This document shows positions 35,797-63,695 of a stretch of 64,000 bases of DNA, one piece after another (within the stretch, counting starts at the first letter, position 1; every line of letters starts with the position of its first letter). Source of the stretch: Escherichia phage MRostami-2023e. The position numbers and the translations under genes were made by a program. The DNA lies in the sequence record OQ031495, one strand, 5' to 3'. The notes under the pieces are model-generated. The model saw only the letters and a program-made list of their open reading frames with translations, searched no databases and was not told the DNA's origin.

Positions 35797-36432
35797 ATGA
35801 AAACTACTCCTATTACTATCGCTATTGACGCAATCATAAAACAAGCTTCTTCTTTGGCCGCTATGGCCAAAGTAATTAGTCAAAACCCTGCTCGTTATAA
35901 TGCTATTCTAGAAACTCTTCGACGCCCTGGACTTAGTAATTATGAAAGCCGAGTAATTATTACAGGTGTTGGTAAGAATGCTAATATTGCAACTAAAGCG
36001 TCTGAGACATTTGCTTCACTCGGTATCCCGAGTATGTACTTGAACACTGGGCATTATTCTCACGGTGATGCAGGATTTATTGCGCCTAATGATGTGTTGA
36101 TTCATATTAGTCGTTCTGGTAAAACTGAAGAAATGATAGGCGTGGCTAAGCATCTTAAAATGATTCGCCCGAACGTCAAACAGATTCTGTTGCATTGTAA
36201 CCCAGACATTCCACAAGAATACGAAGCCCTTTTTGATTACTCTTTCTGTACAGGCATCGCGGTAGAAGTTGATGAGAATTCTCTGGCTCCGACTATGTCC
36301 ACTACATTGTTGTTAGCGCTTATCGATACGTTTGCTATCAACCTTTCGTCTGAACGTGGATTTACCTCTAATGACTTCCTTAAGTTCCACCCTGGCGGTG
36401 CACTAGGTGCCATGTTACGAGGCGAACAATGA
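35797..36432 (+). CDS. SIS-domain sugar-phosphate isomerase, KdsD/GutQ-like (putative D-arabinose-5-phosphate isomerase)
   Basis: VIITGVGKNANIA...GHYSHGDAG...HISRSGKTEE...LAPTMSTTLLLAL...HPGGALG align with the KdsD SIS domain as recalled; no CBS domains. Confidence 0.75.
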   Translation: MKTTPITIAIDAIIKQASSLAAMAKVISQNPARYNAILETLRRPGLSNYESRVIITGVGKNANIATKASETFASLGIPSMYLNTGHYSHGDAGFIAPNDVLIHISRSGKTEEMIGVAKHLKMIRPNVKQILLHCNPDIPQEYEALFDYSFCTGIAVEVDENSLAPTMSTTLLLALIDTFAINLSSERGFTSNDFLKFHPGGALGAMLRGEQ

Positions 36433-36572
36433 AAGCAATAACAATAGGACTTTTACTATTGATGCTTGTCATGACTATCTACTGGAGCTTAACGGCTCCA
36501 GTAATGATTCCAACACTTGTAATTGGATGGATTATGATTGGACTACAAGCAAAGTATGAATGCTTTAACTAG
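36429..36572 (+). CDS. Small hydrophobic protein
   Basis: 47-aa ORF with two hydrophobic stretches; below track cutoff. Confidence 0.3.
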   Translation: MKAITIGLLLLMLVMTIYWSLTAPVMIPTLVIGWIMIGLQAKYECFN

Positions 36573-36613: not shown

Positions 36614-38299
36614 ATGAAAAAAGCTGTTATTCTTGGTGCTGGACTGGCAACTCGTTTGTATCCAATAACGCATCATATTCCTAAGGTGCTTGTTAACTAT
36701 AAACAAGACACTATTCTGAGCAATTTGTATACAATTTATTCTGACCTTGGCGCAGATGAAATTATTGTAGTAGTTCATTCAAAATTTGCTGAAACTGTTC
36801 GAGCTTATTGTGAGCAAGAAGGGTTCAATGTGACTATTCGTACAGTTGATGAAGCGTATGGTTCTGCTTATGCTCTTGCTAAATTACACAAAGATTTAGA
36901 CGGCCATAATGTAATTGTTAACTGGTGTGATATTATTCCGGATTTTGGTTCATGGTCTTGGAATGTTAACGCAATCTATGTTAAGGGTGACGAATGTCGA
37001 TATAATTTCGACGGTGAAAATATCACTAACGTAGGTTCAACAGGTGGTAATGTTGTAGGAATTTATCAGTTCAAAGACTGGGAATTCTATATGGGTTCTA
37101 CCGATGAGGAAATTCATGAATACTGCAAAGGACGTGATTTCGTAGAATTCCTTTACGGCAGCGCATTCAATAAATCAGAGCTTATGAATCTAATTGATTT
37201 AGGTGATATGCCTAAACTTGAAAAAGCTCATGAAGTTCGTGAACTTAATCGTAGTTTTAATGCAGTTGAAATTGGTGAAGAAACTGTAACTAAATTCGCA
37301 TTAACCGAACAGGGTCGAGCTCTTCAGAAAGATGAGATTTCATGGTATCTTAAAGTGAAATCAGATTCAGTTCCTCAGTTAGTTTCTGTTAATGAAAATA
37401 ACTTTGAAATGGAACGCATTAAAGGTAAGCCGGCATTTGAATATATTAAATCAAAATCAAGTCTTGCTCGTCCACAAATTATTGATGCAATTTTAGATGC
37501 ACTGAAATTCAGCACAGACACTTATTTTGTAAGTCCTGAAACTGTTCGCCGTGATTTCACTAAAGAATTCTATACGAAAGTTATTGATCGTTGTGAAAGT
37601 ATTCAACCATTGATTGATTCATTTGGTAAAATCACACATGTGAACTACACTAAGATTGGGCGTCTGAAGCCAATGTTGAAACAAGCTTTAGAACATCTTA
37701 TTCGTTATCATAACCGTTCTCAGGGACAGTACTCTGTTATTCACGGTGACCCGAACTTCAGTAATACTATGATTACTGATAACGGCGAAGTCAAGTTTAT
37801 CGACCCTCGTGGATATTTTGGCGAAACCAAGATTTACGGGCCAAAATTGTATGATGAAGCTAAAGTGCTTTATGCTGTTTCAGGTTATGATGAATTCAAT
37901 GCTAATCCGGCCTGGGGACAGTTTACTATTGATGAAACAACTTGTAATGTGACTATTAACATCAATCCATTAGTTTACAAATATGGAAAGATGAGTTCGT
38001 TTAACGAGTATCATCATTTGGCAGTGGCAATTATCTGGATTGCATTAGGTGGTTATTTCAAGAATAATCCACTTAAAGCGGTTGCCGCATATTATAAAGG
38101 TATGGAACTTCTGACTAAGCAATTACGTAACATGGGCCGTGTACTTCAAGACGGCTCTATTAGTTATGACGTAGCAGAACCTGTAACGGCTACTCTGATT
38201 ACAAAAAATCCGGGTAAATGGGTACTAACTGATAAAGAAACTGGTGTTTCCTATCGTCCAATCGGTGGCGATATCACTCATCAATGGGAACGAATCTAA
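36614..38299 (+). CDS. Bifunctional sugar-1-phosphate nucleotidyltransferase / sugar kinase
   Basis: N-terminal AVILGAGLATRL nucleotidyltransferase signature; C-terminal VIHGDPNFSN and VKFIDPRG kinase motifs (APH/choline-kinase type). Confidence 0.7.
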   Translation: MKKAVILGAGLATRLYPITHHIPKVLVNYKQDTILSNLYTIYSDLGADEIIVVVHSKFAETVRAYCEQEGFNVTIRTVDEAYGSAYALAKLHKDLDGHNVIVNWCDIIPDFGSWSWNVNAIYVKGDECRYNFDGENITNVGSTGGNVVGIYQFKDWEFYMGSTDEEIHEYCKGRDFVEFLYGSAFNKSELMNLIDLGDMPKLEKAHEVRELNRSFNAVEIGEETVTKFALTEQGRALQKDEISWYLKVKSDSVPQLVSVNENNFEMERIKGKPAFEYIKSKSSLARPQIIDAILDALKFSTDTYFVSPETVRRDFTKEFYTKVIDRCESIQPLIDSFGKITHVNYTKIGRLKPMLKQALEHLIRYHNRSQGQYSVIHGDPNFSNTMITDNGEVKFIDPRGYFGETKIYGPKLYDEAKVLYAVSGYDEFNANPAWGQFTIDETTCNVTININPLVYKYGKMSSFNEYHHLAVAIIWIALGGYFKNNPLKAVAAYYKGMELLTKQLRNMGRVLQDGSISYDVAEPVTATLITKNPGKWVLTDKETGVSYRPIGGDITHQWERI

Positions 38300-38685
38300 T
38301 GCACCGTGTAGAAAACATGCTTAATCTTTATTTTGATGTCGATGATTGTATAACAGAGTGGAATAACAATCGTGATTACGTGAACTTCAAGCCAGACGTC
38401 GAAATGGTGTCTGCCATTAATGCCCTGTATGATGCAGGGCATACCATAACGCTTTACACTGCTCGCGGTATGAAGTCAGTAGGTCCTGGACGTATAGCAA
38501 TTGACATTCTCCCAAGTCTGATTCAGAACTTGGCAAACATTGGCTTGAAGTACCATAATTTGCTAACACATAAACCAGTATATGATTGGATTATCGACGA
38601 CAAAGCTATGCGTCCTGACGAATTCAAAGCTCTTATGAATAAAGGCGAATTCGAAACATTTAAATCATATAAACCGAATCTATAA
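38299..38685 (+). CDS. Small HAD-like phosphatase (KdsC-like)
   Basis: LYFDVDDCITEW (DxD motif I), ITLYTARG (motif II), HKP...WIIDDKA (K and DD motifs); 128 aa. Confidence 0.5.
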   Translation: MHRVENMLNLYFDVDDCITEWNNNRDYVNFKPDVEMVSAINALYDAGHTITLYTARGMKSVGPGRIAIDILPSLIQNLANIGLKYHNLLTHKPVYDWIIDDKAMRPDEFKALMNKGEFETFKSYKPNL

Positions 38686-38742: not shown

Positions 38743-39903
38743 ATGAATACTTTTAAAATCGGAACGAATTTTGATTTAGCTCTTCTTGATAAAATCGTAG
38801 AGCTCAATAAAACTTATCCTAATAGCTTGATAAACGAAGTATACGGCTCTACAAGAGAAATGGCTTTTGTAGCAGCCAGACCTGATTTTAGGCTTCCTGA
38901 CGTTGACAAAAAGATGTTAGAAGATTACGTTAAACGTTGTAACGAATTAGGTATTTGCTTTAACTATACACTCAACACGATAAATCCGGGTTCAAAAAGA
39001 GAACTAGTTGAGTGGAAGAAGAAAGCTATTCAGGACTATGTTCAGTATCTTTGGTCAATAGGCGTATGGCGTATTACTATCGCTAACCCTGTTGTTATGG
39101 AAATTGTTCGTGAAGTCAATAAAGACATTGAGATTGAAGTTTCAACAATTCTACATGTCGATGCTGTAACTCAAATCAAATACTTGCATGACCAGTATAA
39201 TATCAAAAAGGTCTGCTGTGGAATTCATAAGAACCGTTCAGTTTCTTTCCTGAAGCGTGCAGCAGAGTTTTGCAATAAGAACAATATAATATTTGAAGTT
39301 CTTGTAAATGAGTTCTGTTCTAATGCTGGTAAAGGGTATACAACACATTGTAGCTATCGTGACTCTTGCTATATTTTCCATAGTACTGATGTTACAGCTG
39401 ATGATGCTAAATCCTTAAATGGATATCCTATGCAGCACTGTATTAAAGCTCGTGATACAGACCCATTTAACTGGTTGAGAACTCGTTTTGTTCGTCCACA
39501 AGATTTGAAACTTTATAATGATATTGGTATCACTCAATTTAAAGTTTCGGGACGTACAGGTAGCACAGACTACATTTTGAAAGTTCTTGAAGCATACGCT
39601 TCTGAAAAGTTTGAAGGTAATTTGTTAGAATTGTGGAAGCCTTTAGAGACCATTTTCACTCTTGAAAATGAGACCGAGTTTTCACATACGGTAAATATTG
39701 AAACCTCTTTGTTAGATGGCTTTTTAGAAAAAAGGTGGTTCAGACATCCAGATTTCGATTGTGCTAATGAAATCTGCGGGACGACGTGTACATATTGTGA
39801 AAGATATTATAAACGTCAGTTATCTAAAAACGGGTTAGCAGAAAACTCTATATCTATTATTGATATAACTAACTCTGATGACGCTTTGAGGTACCCGGAA
39901 TGA
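38743..39903 (+). CDS. Cys-rich hypothetical protein (possible U32-like Fe-S fold)
   Basis: 386 aa; EVLVNEFCSNAGKGYTTHCSYRDSC and C-terminal CANEICGTTCTYC clusters. Confidence 0.5.
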   Translation: MNTFKIGTNFDLALLDKIVELNKTYPNSLINEVYGSTREMAFVAARPDFRLPDVDKKMLEDYVKRCNELGICFNYTLNTINPGSKRELVEWKKKAIQDYVQYLWSIGVWRITIANPVVMEIVREVNKDIEIEVSTILHVDAVTQIKYLHDQYNIKKVCCGIHKNRSVSFLKRAAEFCNKNNIIFEVLVNEFCSNAGKGYTTHCSYRDSCYIFHSTDVTADDAKSLNGYPMQHCIKARDTDPFNWLRTRFVRPQDLKLYNDIGITQFKVSGRTGSTDYILKVLEAYASEKFEGNLLELWKPLETIFTLENETEFSHTVNIETSLLDGFLEKRWFRHPDFDCANEICGTTCTYCERYYKRQLSKNGLAENSISIIDITNSDDALRYPE

Positions 39904-40139
39904 TTTCTAGAAAAACTTTTAATTATAATCTTAACGAAGAGATTTTGACTATTAAACTGAACACTAACGAACAAATTCTTAAAAAGGCCCTTATGGGCCT
40001 GTTTGAAACCAAAGCGGCTAAAGTGATTAAAGAACCTGTTCAATTGGAATACTACACTGATGCATTCCTTCATAGTGTTCTTGGAAGTATAGATTCTGAA
40101 GCTTTACGTTATATCAACATTGCCAAGAAATTCAAATAA
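39900..40139 (+). CDS. Hypothetical protein
   Basis: 79-aa ORF. Confidence 0.45.
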   Translation: MISRKTFNYNLNEEILTIKLNTNEQILKKALMGLFETKAAKVIKEPVQLEYYTDAFLHSVLGSIDSEALRYINIAKKFK

Positions 40140-40180: not shown

Positions 40181-40897
40181 ATGGGAAAACATAACACAAT
40201 GAAATATATCAAAGCCGCAGATTTTCAAACCGCATTTAAAGCAGTCAATCGTGAAATTTTAGAAAACCCGGAATTCGTAACTGATTCTCGTATTGGACGT
40301 TGTAATGAAATTGGGTCTATGACAGTAGTTGTTGACACTCCATCATCATTCAAAATGACCGACCCACGTATTAACCGCATCTCTTATGAATATGCCGAAG
40401 ACTTCTGGAAGTTTATGATTTCTGGTGGTACTGATGCAGAAGAAGCGTTTAAGGCATATCCTAATGTCGCTAAATTTATTTCTAAACCTAAATCAGACGC
40501 TTTGCCTGCAAACTTCAACACTTTCTACGGTCCTCGCATTGCGGCCCAATTACCGGCTCTTCTAAAAGAACTTAAAGAGAAGCCTAACTCTCGAAGAGTT
40601 GTGTTCCAAATTCTAGAAAGTTCTGATCAGGCTTTGCTTGATTCGGACGAAACGCTTGAATATCCATGTACTGACTCAGTGACTTATTATATTCGCGATG
40701 GTAAGCTTTATACCCACTGTCATATGCGTTCTCAGAACTGTGCTGTTGTTATGCAGTTGGATTTTTATCTCCAAGGAAAATTACTTCATTATATCGCTAA
40801 CGAATGTGGTGTAGAAGTTGGTGATTATACTCATACCATGGTAAGTGCCCATGTGTTTGAACGTGATTTTGATTATGTTAAAGGGTTTCTTGACTAA
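40181..40897 (+). CDS. 42: dCMP hydroxymethylase (thymidylate-synthase fold)
   Basis: TS-like core with nucleophile Cys in YPCTDSVTYY and RSQNCAVVMQLDF carrying Asp at the pyrimidine-specificity position; T4 gene 42 position. Confidence 0.7.
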   Translation: MGKHNTMKYIKAADFQTAFKAVNREILENPEFVTDSRIGRCNEIGSMTVVVDTPSSFKMTDPRINRISYEYAEDFWKFMISGGTDAEEAFKAYPNVAKFISKPKSDALPANFNTFYGPRIAAQLPALLKELKEKPNSRRVVFQILESSDQALLDSDETLEYPCTDSVTYYIRDGKLYTHCHMRSQNCAVVMQLDFYLQGKLLHYIANECGVEVGDYTHTMVSAHVFERDFDYVKGFLD

Positions 40898-41796
40898 TGG
40901 CTATTTTCCGCGTACCTATTTTGAGTATGCGGTCTTATGAAACTGGACAGTATGCTATCCTTAAGGATGGCAACTTCCAACTTCATTTGCACCGTGCTAA
41001 TCCAGGCGATGTGATTACATATCCACGTAATGCATCTGATATTAAAGAATGTGAACGTCTTTTCCCAGAATTTAAGTTTGTTCCATTATGGTATAAAGAT
41101 AACGCGTATAACACTCGTAAATATTTCTGGTCTGAAAATGAATTTGTGGTTGATTCATTAATTGCTTATTATGATTGTGATTTTCTAATCACAGATATCA
41201 CTGGATATGATGGCGCTTTTGACGTAGAATTCAATTTCAATATCACTGCAGACCCTAATAAACCACGTTTTTATATTGACGAATTCTTAAAAACCGACAT
41301 GTTGTCGGTTAATCGTTCACTTCAAACTACTGTGTTGAATGAACGTCAAAAAGAAGTGCTGGTTAACGCAGGTGCAGATGGTAATAAGATTATCGTAACG
41401 CAGAAAGTTATACGTCCTTCCGTCATGCAGCGTCTTGTAGGTGATTTGGCTCCTATTCATCTAGATGGTATTTTTCATCCATTTCGAATTAGTGACCCAT
41501 GCTATCGTTTTGAACAAGTTGTTGAATGCGCAATTCAATTAGGTCAACCGCTTTATATAACTGATCCAAATAATAGTTTCGACAGAAATAAGTATCCTGA
41601 AGAAGCGCTGATTCGAATTTTTAATCCAACTAAAACTGAGTACTATCAAATTCTTAAAGGACGTCCGAAGATTCAATATTTCGAAAATCCTGAAGAAGTA
41701 TTCCATCCAGGTCTTGGTGAGTTCATCTACTTTAACGCTTTAATTTCTTCGCCGTATAATATACCTAAATACGAAGATGTCGTAATCGAGGAATAA
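40897..41796 (+). CDS. Hypothetical protein at the T4 beta-glucosyltransferase position
   Basis: 299-aa ORF, no resemblance to T4 Bgt by eye. Confidence 0.5.
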   Translation: MAIFRVPILSMRSYETGQYAILKDGNFQLHLHRANPGDVITYPRNASDIKECERLFPEFKFVPLWYKDNAYNTRKYFWSENEFVVDSLIAYYDCDFLITDITGYDGAFDVEFNFNITADPNKPRFYIDEFLKTDMLSVNRSLQTTVLNERQKEVLVNAGADGNKIIVTQKVIRPSVMQRLVGDLAPIHLDGIFHPFRISDPCYRFEQVVECAIQLGQPLYITDPNNSFDRNKYPEEALIRIFNPTKTEYYQILKGRPKIQYFENPEEVFHPGLGEFIYFNALISSPYNIPKYEDVVIEE

Positions 41797-41797
41797 A

Positions 41798-42346
41798 ATG
41801 GCTAAAATTATTTTAGTAGATGGCCCAGATAATGCTGGTAAAACAACTTTCATTAATGACATAATGGAAATTAGTGAAAGATATGTAAAGATTGATTTCC
41901 CTAAACGAACAGTTGATGGACGTTTCGATGTTAAGTCTCGAAATGAAGTTGGCTGTTTCGAAACGATGTTGAATTATTTAGACCCTACTAAGATTTATCT
42001 GTTAGACCGTGGATATATTAGTAACTGGGTTTATGGACGTATTCGACAAGATGCGGATTCGGTTCTTGACGTTTATGAACAGGATTATATTCGTCTTTGC
42101 CAAAACCATGATGTGTTCACAATTATTTTAACACGTAACGAAATGACTGAAAGTTTTGAAGACGACCTTATTACTTTGTCTTCATTCGGTTTTAATACAG
42201 TCATTTCACATTTTGAAGAGTTTGCAATTCATAACAAAATCCAAACGTATCAATTACTTAATCATGATGGTGCTAACAAAGTTATAGGATTTAATGCAAG
42301 CGAACGTAATGATTTGATTACAGAAATCATCAAATGGGCTCGTTAA
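41798..42346 (+). CDS. P-loop kinase-like protein
   Basis: ILVDGPDNAGKTT Walker A near N-terminus, 182 aa. Confidence 0.5.
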   Translation: MAKIILVDGPDNAGKTTFINDIMEISERYVKIDFPKRTVDGRFDVKSRNEVGCFETMLNYLDPTKIYLLDRGYISNWVYGRIRQDADSVLDVYEQDYIRLCQNHDVFTIILTRNEMTESFEDDLITLSSFGFNTVISHFEEFAIHNKIQTYQLLNHDGANKVIGFNASERNDLITEIIKWAR

Positions 42347-42444: not shown

Positions 42445-43617
42445 ATGTCTGATTTAAAATCTCGTCTGATTAAAGCTTCTACTTCTAAAATGACTGCAGA
42501 CTTGACTAAGTCTAAGCTGTTTAATAATCGTGATGAAGTCCCTACTCGTATTCCGATGTTGAATATCGCACTAGGTGGTGCTCTGAATGCAGGATTGCAA
42601 TCAGGCTTGACTATTTTTGCTGCTCCTTCTAAACACTTTAAAACGTTGTTTGGGCTGACTATGGTCGCAGCGTATATGAAGAAATATAAAGATGCAATCT
42701 GTTTGTTTTATGACTCAGAATTCGGTGCTTCAGAATCTTATTTTCGTTCAATGGGTGTTGATTTAGACCGTGTAGTTCATACTCCGATTCAATCTGTCGA
42801 ACAACTTAAAGTTGATATGACTAATCAGCTTGACGCGATTGAACGCGGTGATAAAGTTATTATCTTTATCGATTCAATTGGTAATACTGCATCTAAGAAA
42901 GAAACCGAAGATGCGTTGAACGAGAAAGTTGTAGGTGATATGTCTCGTGCTAAGGCACTTAAATCTCTTTTCCGTATTGTGACTCCTTATCTGACTATTA
43001 AAGATATTCCGTGTGTTGCAATCAACCATACAGCAATGGAAATCGGCGGACTATATCCTAAAGAGATTATGGGTGGCGGTACAGGTATTCTTTACTCTGC
43101 TAACACTGTATTCTTTATCTCTAAACGTCAGGTTAAAGAAGGTACAGAATTGACCGGTTATGACTTCACGTTGAAAGCAGAAAAATCTCGTACAGTTAAA
43201 GAGAAATCTACTTTCCCGATCACGGTTAATTTTGATGGCGGTATTGATCCATTCAGTGGCTTGTTAGAAATGGCAACTGAAATTGGTTTTGTAGTTAAGC
43301 CTAAAGCTGGTTGGTATGCTCGTGAATTCCTTGACGAAGAAACAGGTGAAATGATTCGTGAAGAGAAATCGTGGCGTGCTAAAGCTACTGATTGTGTAGA
43401 ATTCTGGGGTCCGTTGTTTAAACACAAACCTTTCCGAGATGCAATTGAAACTAAATATAAACTAGGTGCTATCTCTTCTATTAAAGAAGTTGATGACGCT
43501 GTTAATGACCTTATTAATTGCAAAGCAACAACTAAAGTTCCTGTTAAAACTTCTGATGCTCCGTCTGCAGCAGATATAGAAAACGACCTTGACGAAATGG
43601 AAGATTTCGATGAATAA
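42445..43617 (+). CDS. uvsX: Recombinase UvsX (RecA-like)
   Basis: MSDLKSRLIKAS...IPMLNIALGG...FAAPSKHFKT...; 390 aa, matches T4 UvsX. Confidence 0.95.
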   Translation: MSDLKSRLIKASTSKMTADLTKSKLFNNRDEVPTRIPMLNIALGGALNAGLQSGLTIFAAPSKHFKTLFGLTMVAAYMKKYKDAICLFYDSEFGASESYFRSMGVDLDRVVHTPIQSVEQLKVDMTNQLDAIERGDKVIIFIDSIGNTASKKETEDALNEKVVGDMSRAKALKSLFRIVTPYLTIKDIPCVAINHTAMEIGGLYPKEIMGGGTGILYSANTVFFISKRQVKEGTELTGYDFTLKAEKSRTVKEKSTFPITVNFDGGIDPFSGLLEMATEIGFVVKPKAGWYAREFLDEETGEMIREEKSWRAKATDCVEFWGPLFKHKPFRDAIETKYKLGAISSIKEVDDAVNDLINCKATTKVPVKTSDAPSAADIENDLDEMEDFDE

Positions 43618-62594: not shown

Positions 62595-63695
62595 ATGAAA
62601 GTTATGTTTATCCCATCTCGCGCAGTCCCATTTAATCCTGACCGTGTACAAGGTGGCCTTGAAGCAGTACATTTAAATGTGTTGAAATATTTAGTTTCTA
62701 TTGGTGCTGATATTGATTATATCGGCTTTGATAATGACACGTTTGGTGACTGGAAAGTTACACACCATCCTGTTGGTCATCTGACAAAATTCAGTCTAGG
62801 TATGAGTTATACTATGGCTCGTAAGATTGTTGAACTAGCCGGCATCCATGAATACGATTTTGTTGTTACTATGGAACCGACTAAACTAACCGTTCAGGCA
62901 ATTAAAGACGCAGGTCTCTCTAAAGTTCATAAGAATTTTATGGCAACACCATTTGAACCGGTATCTCGTGGTATTGTTCAAATTTGGGACCAGACTATTC
63001 AAATTCATAAGAATGGTGGTAAGAGTTATGCTCCCACTAAAGCCTTCCGTGAATTTGAACGCAAATATTGTTATATGACTTCAGGTCTGACTGACAAAAT
63101 TGATTATGATTATTGGCGAGCAAATCCGTTGTTTGAAGCCGAAGATTATCCGGTTATTTGTTTGAATGAGAAACCTGAAGTTCTTCCGGCGACTGATCTG
63201 ATTATTAGTGCACAACGTTATGACACTAAAATGCGTCGTACTGATGTTGCTCTTGAAGCAATTAAAGCACTAGGCGAAAATGGTATTGGTTATTGTCCTA
63301 GTAAATGGGCACCACCAGCTAAATATCCTGTTATTATTGATGCTCCACACAGTGAAATTATGGAACGTCTTAAAACAGCTAAAGCACTTATTAATACGTG
63401 TCCTGACACAGGTACGGTAGAGAATAGTTCTATTGAAGCCATCTCTAAAGGTGTCCCTGTAATCCAGTTAGTTTTTAAGGATTATCCTCATGCGACATTC
63501 GAATACGACCCAGATACTGTGCGTGTAGAAATTGATTCCTCTACTCCTAAGAAAGAAGTAGTTGCGCTTTACACAAAAGCTGTATTAGAATTCACTGACA
63601 CATACGAAGCTAGAGTTAAACGTGCTGAAGCAGTATGGAAGAAGTATAACCGAGATGCAGTTGTTGCGATGTGGGATAAAATCTTCACAGCGTAA
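62595..63695 (+). CDS. GT-B-fold glycosyltransferase (candidate DNA hydroxymethylcytosine glycosyltransferase)
   Basis: 366 aa; N-terminal MKVMFIPSRAVPFNPDRVQGGLEAVHLNVLKYL and C-terminal GTVENSSIEAISKGVPVI resemble GT4-type donor-binding motifs. Confidence 0.55.
   Translation: MKVMFIPSRAVPFNPDRVQGGLEAVHLNVLKYLVSIGADIDYIGFDNDTFGDWKVTHHPVGHLTKFSLGMSYTMARKIVELAGIHEYDFVVTMEPTKLTVQAIKDAGLSKVHKNFMATPFEPVSRGIVQIWDQTIQIHKNGGKSYAPTKAFREFERKYCYMTSGLTDKIDYDYWRANPLFEAEDYPVICLNEKPEVLPATDLIISAQRYDTKMRRTDVALEAIKALGENGIGYCPSKWAPPAKYPVIIDAPHSEIMERLKTAKALINTCPDTGTVENSSIEAISKGVPVIQLVFKDYPHATFEYDPDTVRVEIDSSTPKKEVVALYTKAVLEFTDTYEARVKRAEAVWKKYNRDAVVAMWDKIFTA

Follow-up and report, generated by a model that had tools for sequence, protein, structure and literature searches.

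The adjacent genes for a 299-aa protein with a modelled glycosyltransferase fold and a 182-aa P-loop nucleotide kinase-like protein in Escherichia phage MRostami-2023e (sequence record OQ031495; the whole stretch analysed, 64,000 nucleotides, is called the window) probably belong to the core of the pathway by which RB69-type phages hypermodify their DNA with arabinosyl-5-hydroxycytosine, with the kinase acting on 5-hydroxy-dCMP and the first sugar being added on DNA. The window is from a Mosigvirus. Its identity to RB69 and Bas46 is ~98%, phage HY126 differs from it very little, and the 7.1 kb that surround the gene pair show 100% identity to Escherichia phage vB_EQ1 and ~98% identity to PhAPEC2, Bas46 (ChristianSchoenbein) and ~150 further Mosigvirus records. 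The pair is ordinary for the clade and has already been described for virtually identical phages. RB69 gp46:47 and gp45, DLP3 gp79 and gp78, and Thanatos TH1_063 and TH1_064 are the same proteins as those in the window, with identities of 98-99% to the RB69 genes (98.9% for the kinase and gp45), 46% to those of Acinetobacter phages and 44-47% to those of Thanatos, and in all three systems they follow the 5-hydroxy-dCMP synthase in the same order, with no material difference. An earlier note on this DNA had called the 299-aa protein unknown; neither protein is so any longer, as gp46:47 and gp45 are tabulated in PMC13326640 as the predicted 'arabinosyltransferase 1' and 'nucleotide kinase'. The transferase is intact in the window, whereas the reference record of RB69 breaks it into ORF047c and ORF046c, which Lee et al. 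(PMC13326640) ascribe to a sequencing error. What is new here is the breadth of the pairing between the two genes, their fusions, and the D169N signature in every adjacent synthase homologue but one.

The two reading frames are real genes, each with an ATG start, and their positions and sizes agree exactly between the earlier note and the ORF listing of the window, as does the Walker A motif at the N-terminus of the 182-aa protein, MAKIILVDGPDNAGKTT. The pair is flanked upstream by an ORF for a 238-aa protein of the thymidylate synthase family and downstream by uvsX (42445..43617). As the T4 order is 42, b-gt, segA, uvsX, the genes for the 299-aa and 182-aa proteins do fill the b-gt slot to which they had been assigned, and the proposal that they belong with the sugar cassette further upstream also stands (Table 1). 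The stop codon of the synthase homologue overlaps the start of the 299-aa gene (TAATG at 40895-40899), a single base separates the 299-aa stop from the kinase start (TAA-A-ATG at 41794-41800), and a GAGGA Shine-Dalgarno sequence precedes the kinase ATG; the three genes are thus packed for coupled translation.

Table 1. Features of the window connected with the predicted cytosine modification pathway.
Feature	Coordinates	Strand	Counterparts and supporting matches
299-aa glycosyltransferase with modelled GT-B fold, predicted first transferase	40897..41796	+	RB69 gp46:47, DLP3 gp79, Thanatos TH1_063
182-aa divergent P-loop nucleotide kinase, probable thymidylate kinase family	41798..42346	+	RB69 gp45, DLP3 gp78, Thanatos TH1_064
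238-aa thymidylate-synthase homologue of the 5-hydroxy-dCMP synthase type (RB69 gp48), predicted to make the acceptor base	40181..40897	+	PF00303; PDB match
211-aa arabinose-5-phosphate isomerase-like protein (RB69 gp55), putative sugar-donor branch	35797..36432	+	NCBIfam KpsF/GutQ E 2.7e-32, KdsD E 1.2e-30; Bas46 annotation; PMC13326640
561-aa putative bifunctional sugar kinase / NDP-sugar pyrophosphorylase (RB69 gp52:53, HY126 AfhE)	36614..38299	+	Pfam NTP_transferase (N-terminal); weak APH-like kinase matches (C-terminal)
133-aa HAD-type phosphatase (RB69 gp51, HY126 AfhF)	38284..38685	+	PHROG 1238; NCBIfam capsule biosynthesis phosphatase E 6.9e-13; PMC13326640
386-aa peptidase-U32-family protein (RB69 gp50)	38743..39903	+	Pfam PF01136 E 7e-11
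366-aa second GT-B transferase (RB69 ORF003c/gp3), predicted to add the second arabinose	62595..63695	+	PDB 9iqz, 9ir0 (HY126 366-aa transferase, 'phage HY126 glycosyltransferase'), near-identity, E 6e-251

The chemistry into which the pair would fit is set by the synthase homologue directly upstream. Arabinose on RB69 DNA was reported by Thomas et al. 2018 (PMC6024577), who suggested that ORF003c is the transferase and that the upstream cassette supplies UDP-arabinose. In a revision of this chemistry, Lee et al. 2026 (PMC13326640) found the sugar to be joined directly to C5 through oxygen, giving arabinosyl-5-hydroxycytosine, and showed that the '42-like' enzyme, RB69 gp48, binds flavin and acts as a 5-hydroxy-dCMP synthase. 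The 238-aa protein of the window matches Pfam PF00303 (E 2.4e-15), is nearly identical to the HY126 synthase structures 9iqc, 9ir2 and 9iqu in the PDB (E 4.5e-162) and carries the L143E/D169N/N177D signature (E. coli ThyA numbering). With this signature, and with RB69 and HY126 counterparts that are 5-hydroxy-dCMP synthases by experiment (PMC13326640), the neighbour is not the gene-42 dCMP hydroxymethylase that the earlier note had taken it for. Because the neighbour makes 5-hydroxy-dCMP, the transferase would not perform a 'second' modification step on hydroxymethylcytosine, as had been suggested, and is instead predicted to transfer the first sugar onto 5-hydroxycytosine.

At the level of sequence the 299-aa protein falls only into PHROG 3891, a group of unknown function; it has no Pfam or NCBIfam match, and no Pfam domain is precomputed for any of 120 homologues. 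There are 138 homologues in a set of 5.8 billion proteins, and the protein appears to form a small, self-contained family, since a profile search of 1.84 billion representative proteins finds only 230 relatives and never reaches the vast GT4 family. A profile of the protein has no match among PDB sequences, direct PDB sequence searches with either the 299-aa or the 182-aa protein as query return spurious or P-loop-only matches, and T4 b-gt matches the 299-aa protein in no sequence search. Homology to the 366-aa transferase of the same phage was considered and rejected (BLASTP E 2).

The fold is more informative. The AlphaFold2 model built from a 58-sequence alignment (pLDDT 95.1, pTM 0.89; a single-sequence model with pLDDT 36.6 was set aside, and only the alignment-based model was used) has two Rossmann-like domains with a cleft between them, which is the GT-B arrangement, and its best structural matches are retaining GT-B enzymes of the GT4 family, with 246-268 residues aligned at 2.9-3.4 A, including sucrose-phosphate synthase (6kih), BshA (6n1x), MshA (3c4q) and PimA (2gej). 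The claim that the protein has no recognisable family therefore stands for sequence and fails for fold, the choice that had been posed between GT-A and GT-B falls to GT-B by both model and structural matches, and the suggestion that it is a candidate DNA-modification glycosyltransferase was right. The protein is ~60-100 residues shorter than the retaining GT4 enzymes, which match it in structure and are invisible to its sequence models. Residues S10-M11-R12-S13, K23-D24-G25-N26, R197, K246 and H270-P271-G272 are invariant in the family. A candidate for the GT4 EX7E motif is E267-x7-E275, a correspondence at the level of sequence, in which position 275 is acidic in 58/58 homologues (E in 49, D in 9) and position 267 is mostly K or T; with its first glutamate unconserved, the motif is only half kept, which counts against the main model.

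The 299-aa protein has no sequence similarity to the beta- or alpha-glucosyltransferase of T4 and has only the slot and the fold class in common with the former, which has 351 aa and a pI of 9.05 as against 299 aa and a pI of 5.05 (family median 5.14). The T4 acceptor is 5-hydroxymethylcytosine and the donor UDP-glucose, in contrast to the predicted 5-hydroxycytosine and UDP-pentofuranose, and the 299-aa transferase is obligatorily paired with a kinase, unlike those of T4.

The phylogenetic distribution and the published sugar content are consistent with a base-proximal role. The 299-aa type is present in 348 phage records, from phages of Escherichia, Acinetobacter, Klebsiella, Serratia, Enterobacter, Proteus, Yersinia, Shewanella and others, and the 366-aa type in 211, from Escherichia, Shigella, Acinetobacter and a few related names only. 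The groups with the 366-aa transferase are those reported to carry di- or tri-arabinose, and Thanatos, which has the 299-aa type only, is reported to be mono-arabinosylated (PMC13326640). Together with orthology to RB69 gp46:47 and the position directly after a synthase of the D169N type, this makes the 299-aa protein the predicted base-proximal, or first, alpha-arabinofuranosyltransferase for 5-hydroxycytosine. The first arabinose is alpha-linked (PMC13326640), a linkage that retaining structural relatives would fit.

A different function has been reported for the Thanatos orthologue TH1_063, which has 47.5% identity and an equivalent position. TH1_063 with UTP and xylose-1-phosphate gave UDP-xylose by LC-MS/MS, and there was no transfer to plasmid DNA, dCMP, dCTP or cytosine (PMC12838424), a result that counts against the main model and would make the 299-aa protein a UDP-pentose pyrophosphorylase that produces the activated sugar. 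We consider this very improbable. The modelled fold is GT-B and not that of a nucleotidyltransferase, and the cassette already holds a protein with a bona fide NTP_transferase domain, the HY126 counterpart of which, AfhE, has a reported pyrophosphorylase activity that PMC13326640 attributes to He et al. As the acceptors used in PMC12838424 are without a 5-hydroxyl, the lack of transfer to them carries no information. Furthermore, the UDP-xylose could have arisen by reverse phosphorolysis, in which a retaining GT-B enzyme would use xylose-1-phosphate together with UDP present as a contaminant. The GT4 trehalose phosphorylases offer an analogy for such a reaction, and if it took place, the UDP-xylose result would itself indicate a UDP-pentose site.

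The 182-aa protein was recognised in the earlier note as resembling small nucleotide kinases, and profile comparisons agree, placing it in the thymidylate-kinase superfamily as a small P-loop nucleotide kinase-like protein. It belongs to PHROG 761 'thymidylate kinase' (E 1.9e-45). The window protein itself falls below every curated cut-off and has no PF02223 match, with 16.4 bits for the dTMP-kinase equivalog TIGR00041 vs a cut-off of 83. PF02223 is matched by 12 of its 19 close relatives with E values no higher than 1 (best 2e-4), and a single distant member of the family clears the Pfam Tmk threshold, with 34.7 bits vs a cut-off of 27. A profile of 24 diverse family members (A3) matches yeast Tmk (1tmk, E 7.6e-13), SPbeta YorR (2axp, E 1.7e-11) and, over the full length (profile 1-177, chain 1-194), vaccinia Tmk (2v54, E 3.7e-12) in the PDB. 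P-loop, FP-x-R and DR motifs are common to the family and to Tmk (PF02223; vaccinia 2v54, SPbeta YorR 2axp). The 19 close relatives share invariant P-loop residues G9, D11, N12, G14, K15 and T16, as well as F34-P35-K36 and D70-R71, of which only G9, K15 and R71 are invariant across the 24-member set. A role as a DNA 5-hydroxyl kinase, for which the 5-hmU DNA kinases provide the analogy, was set aside, as the motifs of nucleotide monophosphate kinases are kept and a phosphorylated hydroxyl cannot accept a sugar from a UDP donor.

The Tmk homology and the database annotation as 'thymidylate kinase' could mean that the protein is an ordinary dTMP kinase, or a kinase for general reprogramming of nucleotide pools, unrelated to cytosine modification. 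Such a role is highly doubtful, given that the gene occurs almost only beside the transferase (343 vs 348 phage records, with the same genus distribution), adjoins it in distant loci, is fused to it in some, and scores far below the equivalog cut-off. T4-like phages already make dTDP by means of a gp1-type kinase, and the genomic context of the 182-aa kinase is cytosine modification and not thymidylate synthesis. A further hint comes from the base-binding region, where a gapless HMM alignment places window residues S47-R48-N49-E50 on the S-A-N-R of yeast Tmk. The arginine of the yeast FSANR motif hydrogen-bonds thymine O4, and its apparent replacement by E50, which depends on the alignment, tentatively points to a cytosine-type base; E50 is invariant in the 19 close relatives. 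T4 gp1 phosphorylates the phage-specific modified dCMP, which is the role proposed here for the 182-aa kinase. The two are without homology beyond the P-loop (the gp1-type structure 1dek aligns with the 182-aa family there only, E 0.099), and the phage has both.

With few exceptions the transferase and the kinase occur together in the loci examined, a pairing that extends well outside the T4-like phages. The survey drew on 58 IMG/VR loci, an initial set of four loci and some subsequent look-ups. At transferase identities of 33% or more, the gene immediately upstream is a synthase homologue and the kinase gene is always there, in most cases as the next gene downstream; JS98-like phages and some Klebsiella and Proteus phages instead have it between the phosphatase gene and the U32 or synthase gene. 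The adjacent synthase homologues have E143, N169 and D177 in all but one, which has S169 (E. coli ThyA numbering). The synthase-transferase-kinase order recurs in contigs of 355 kb and 122 kb, and the latter has a flavodoxin-like gene ahead of the synthase. Even at transferase identities of only 24-28%, a Tmk-like ORF with the motif EGxDRxGK adjoins the transferase gene. An initial reading that distant loci are devoid of the kinase was rejected; a first HMM had missed it, and inspection and a wider profile found the adjoining Tmk-like ORFs. In loci without a synthase homologue, the U32 protein co-occurs with the transferase-kinase pair.

In eight representatives transferase and kinase form a single polypeptide. 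Seven of these have the transferase first, with 26-47% mutual identity, and in the eighth, found on two independent assemblies, the kinase comes first; the fusion arose at least twice independently. Fusions of HAD phosphatase and transferase exist as well, and as these join non-consecutive steps, fusion shows a shared pathway and not consecutive reactions.

The association raises an alternative order of events, in which the 299-aa transferase arabinosylates free 5-hydroxy-dCMP, the kinase serves arabinosyl-5-hydroxy-dCMP, and the polymerase uses a glycosylated dCTP analogue. Transferase and kinase are the tightest association in the pathway, kept where the synthase homologue is absent, and their fusions occur in both orders, with the kinase-to-transferase form on two independent contigs, which would suit such a route; the phosphatase-transferase fusions weaken the latter point. 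Single purified DLP3 transferases with UDP-Araf or UDP-Arap did not arabinosylate 5hoC-containing DNA, and the authors left the acceptor of the first sugar, mononucleotide or DNA, undistinguished (PMC13326640). This negative result speaks against the main model and for transfer to the nucleotide, although it could reflect inactive protein. RB69 gp159, the dNMP kinase of the T4 gp1 type, phosphorylates 5hodCMP in vitro (PMC13326640), so that in T4-like phages a second kinase looks redundant under the main model and has no unique job, whereas a gp1-type kinase would not accept the bulky arabinosyl-5-hydroxy-dCMP. Phages without a gp1 homologue, however, need the kinase in either case. The acidic character of the transferase family, unlike the basic T4 beta-GT, speaks weakly against DNA as the acceptor, and many invariant polar residues lie in the acceptor-side N-terminal domain.

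To our knowledge, every sugar hypermodification of a pyrimidine described in phages is put on at the DNA level, which tells against modification before replication. So does the published work on this pathway: the later arabinoses were shown to be added on DNA, and expression of synthase and kinase leads to entry of 5hodC into DNA without the sugar, with only trace 5hodC in the absence of a phage kinase (PMC13326640). On balance, arabinosylation of the free nucleotide appears unlikely, though it is to be taken seriously; if true, this would be the first case of a phage nucleotide hypermodified with sugar before replication.

The favoured model places the kinase before and the transferase after DNA synthesis. 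The synthase homologue would convert dCMP to 5-hydroxy-dCMP, as shown for RB69 and HY126, and the 182-aa kinase would phosphorylate this to the diphosphate, opening the route to the triphosphate pool and incorporation; it would supply 5hodCDP because host kinases do so poorly. The upstream cassette would make the UDP-arabinofuranose donor, from which the 299-aa transferase would place the first alpha-arabinofuranose on the cytosine 5-hydroxyl, most likely on newly made DNA, where the T4 glucosyltransferases also act. The 366-aa transferase would then add the second arabinose. The genes for the hydroxylase, the kinase and the first transferase would make up a small module, coupled in translation, that is passed on as one piece among widely different phages.

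The pathway to arabinosyl-5-hydroxycytosine was worked out only in 2025-2026. The essentially universal pairing of transferase and kinase, together with two independent fusions, indicates that the kinase is no accessory to it. Arabinosyl-5-hydroxycytosine protects phages from restriction enzymes, CRISPR-Cas and DNA glycosylases, and affects both phage engineering and phage therapy.

The peptidase-U32-family protein is encoded in the gene cassette upstream of the transferase-kinase pair of the arabinosyl-5-hydroxycytosine pathway, and also accompanies this pair in the non-T4 loci L051, L053, L055, L057, L060, L066-L068 and L070 (locus flanks inspected). In the inspected flanks of these U32-bearing loci, no D169N-type synthase homologue, the signature of 5-hydroxy-dCMP synthases, lies within 5 kb, and the sole synthase-type gene within the inspected flanks of L060 is a canonical ThyA. 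The reverse pattern, with the synthase present and U32 missing from the inspected flanks, occurs in many other loci. Among the members of the U32 family are RlhA, TrhP and UbiU/V, whose hydroxylase activity is independent of oxygen; 5-hydroxycytidine in rRNA is the product of RlhA. As the family contains oxygen-independent hydroxylases such as RlhA, the phage U32 protein may by analogy function as an alternative cytosine C5 hydroxylase, possibly an anaerobic one. The label given to it in PMC13326640 is 'sugar or heterocycle reductase'.

The U32 protein of the window shares 79% identity with TH1_065 of the Shewanella phage Thanatos, whereas the adjoining transferase and kinase share only 47% and 44% identity with their Thanatos counterparts. 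At the sequence level, this difference points to unusually strong constraint on the U32 protein or to recent transfer.

Features of the window and of homologous loci (L) and proteins (P)
Feature	Location	Strand	Remark
Peptidase-U32-family protein	window 38743..39903	+	RB69 gp50
Thanatos U32 protein	L002:7462-8598		TH1_065
79-aa ORF	window 39900..40139	+	inside cassette; PHROG 8601
47-aa ORF	window 36429..36572	+	inside cassette
366-aa GT-B transferase	window 62595..63695	+	RB69 ORF003c
Flavodoxin_2 gene	L004:4739-5293		NAD(P)H-dependent FMN reductase-like
Protein starting with dinucleotide-binding GxGxxG motif	L054:5248-6201
Phosphatase-transferase fusion locus	L052:4452-6107
Phosphatase-transferase fusion proteins	P0166, P0176, P0178, P0181, P0194, P0196, P0225, P0246

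The start of the 79-aa ORF overlaps the stop of the U32 gene, and this ORF is conserved in the loci of Mosigvirus and of phages of Yersinia and Pectobacterium; apart from its PHROG, no family match was found for it. The 366-aa transferase is nearly identical to the solved structure 9iqz from the closely related phage HY126, and comparison with the 299-aa transferase of the window revealed no sequence similarity.

The 299-aa transferase is still split into two ORFs (047c and 046c) in the public records of RB69 (NC_004928.1; L063:2599-3499). Many phage records list the 5-hydroxy-dCMP synthase under the name thymidylate synthase or dCMP hydroxymethylase and call the HAD phosphatase a phosphoheptose isomerase.

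Some uncultured phages encode the AfhF-like HAD-type phosphatase (LDFDGIF motif) and the transferase as a single fusion protein, with the phosphatase at the N-terminal end. On a 122-kb phage contig from a metagenome (L004), the Flavodoxin_2 gene lies immediately upstream of the D169N synthase homologue, an arrangement consistent with the report that hydroxylation by RB69 gp48 depends on flavin. At one distant locus (L054), the transferase is followed by the GxGxxG-motif protein (MLVVIHGAGPAGCTAARLL) in place of the kinase, and residue 169 of the synthase homologue is S, not N. This flavoprotein could be a UDP-galactopyranose-mutase-like enzyme, which would hint at a furanose other than arabinose.
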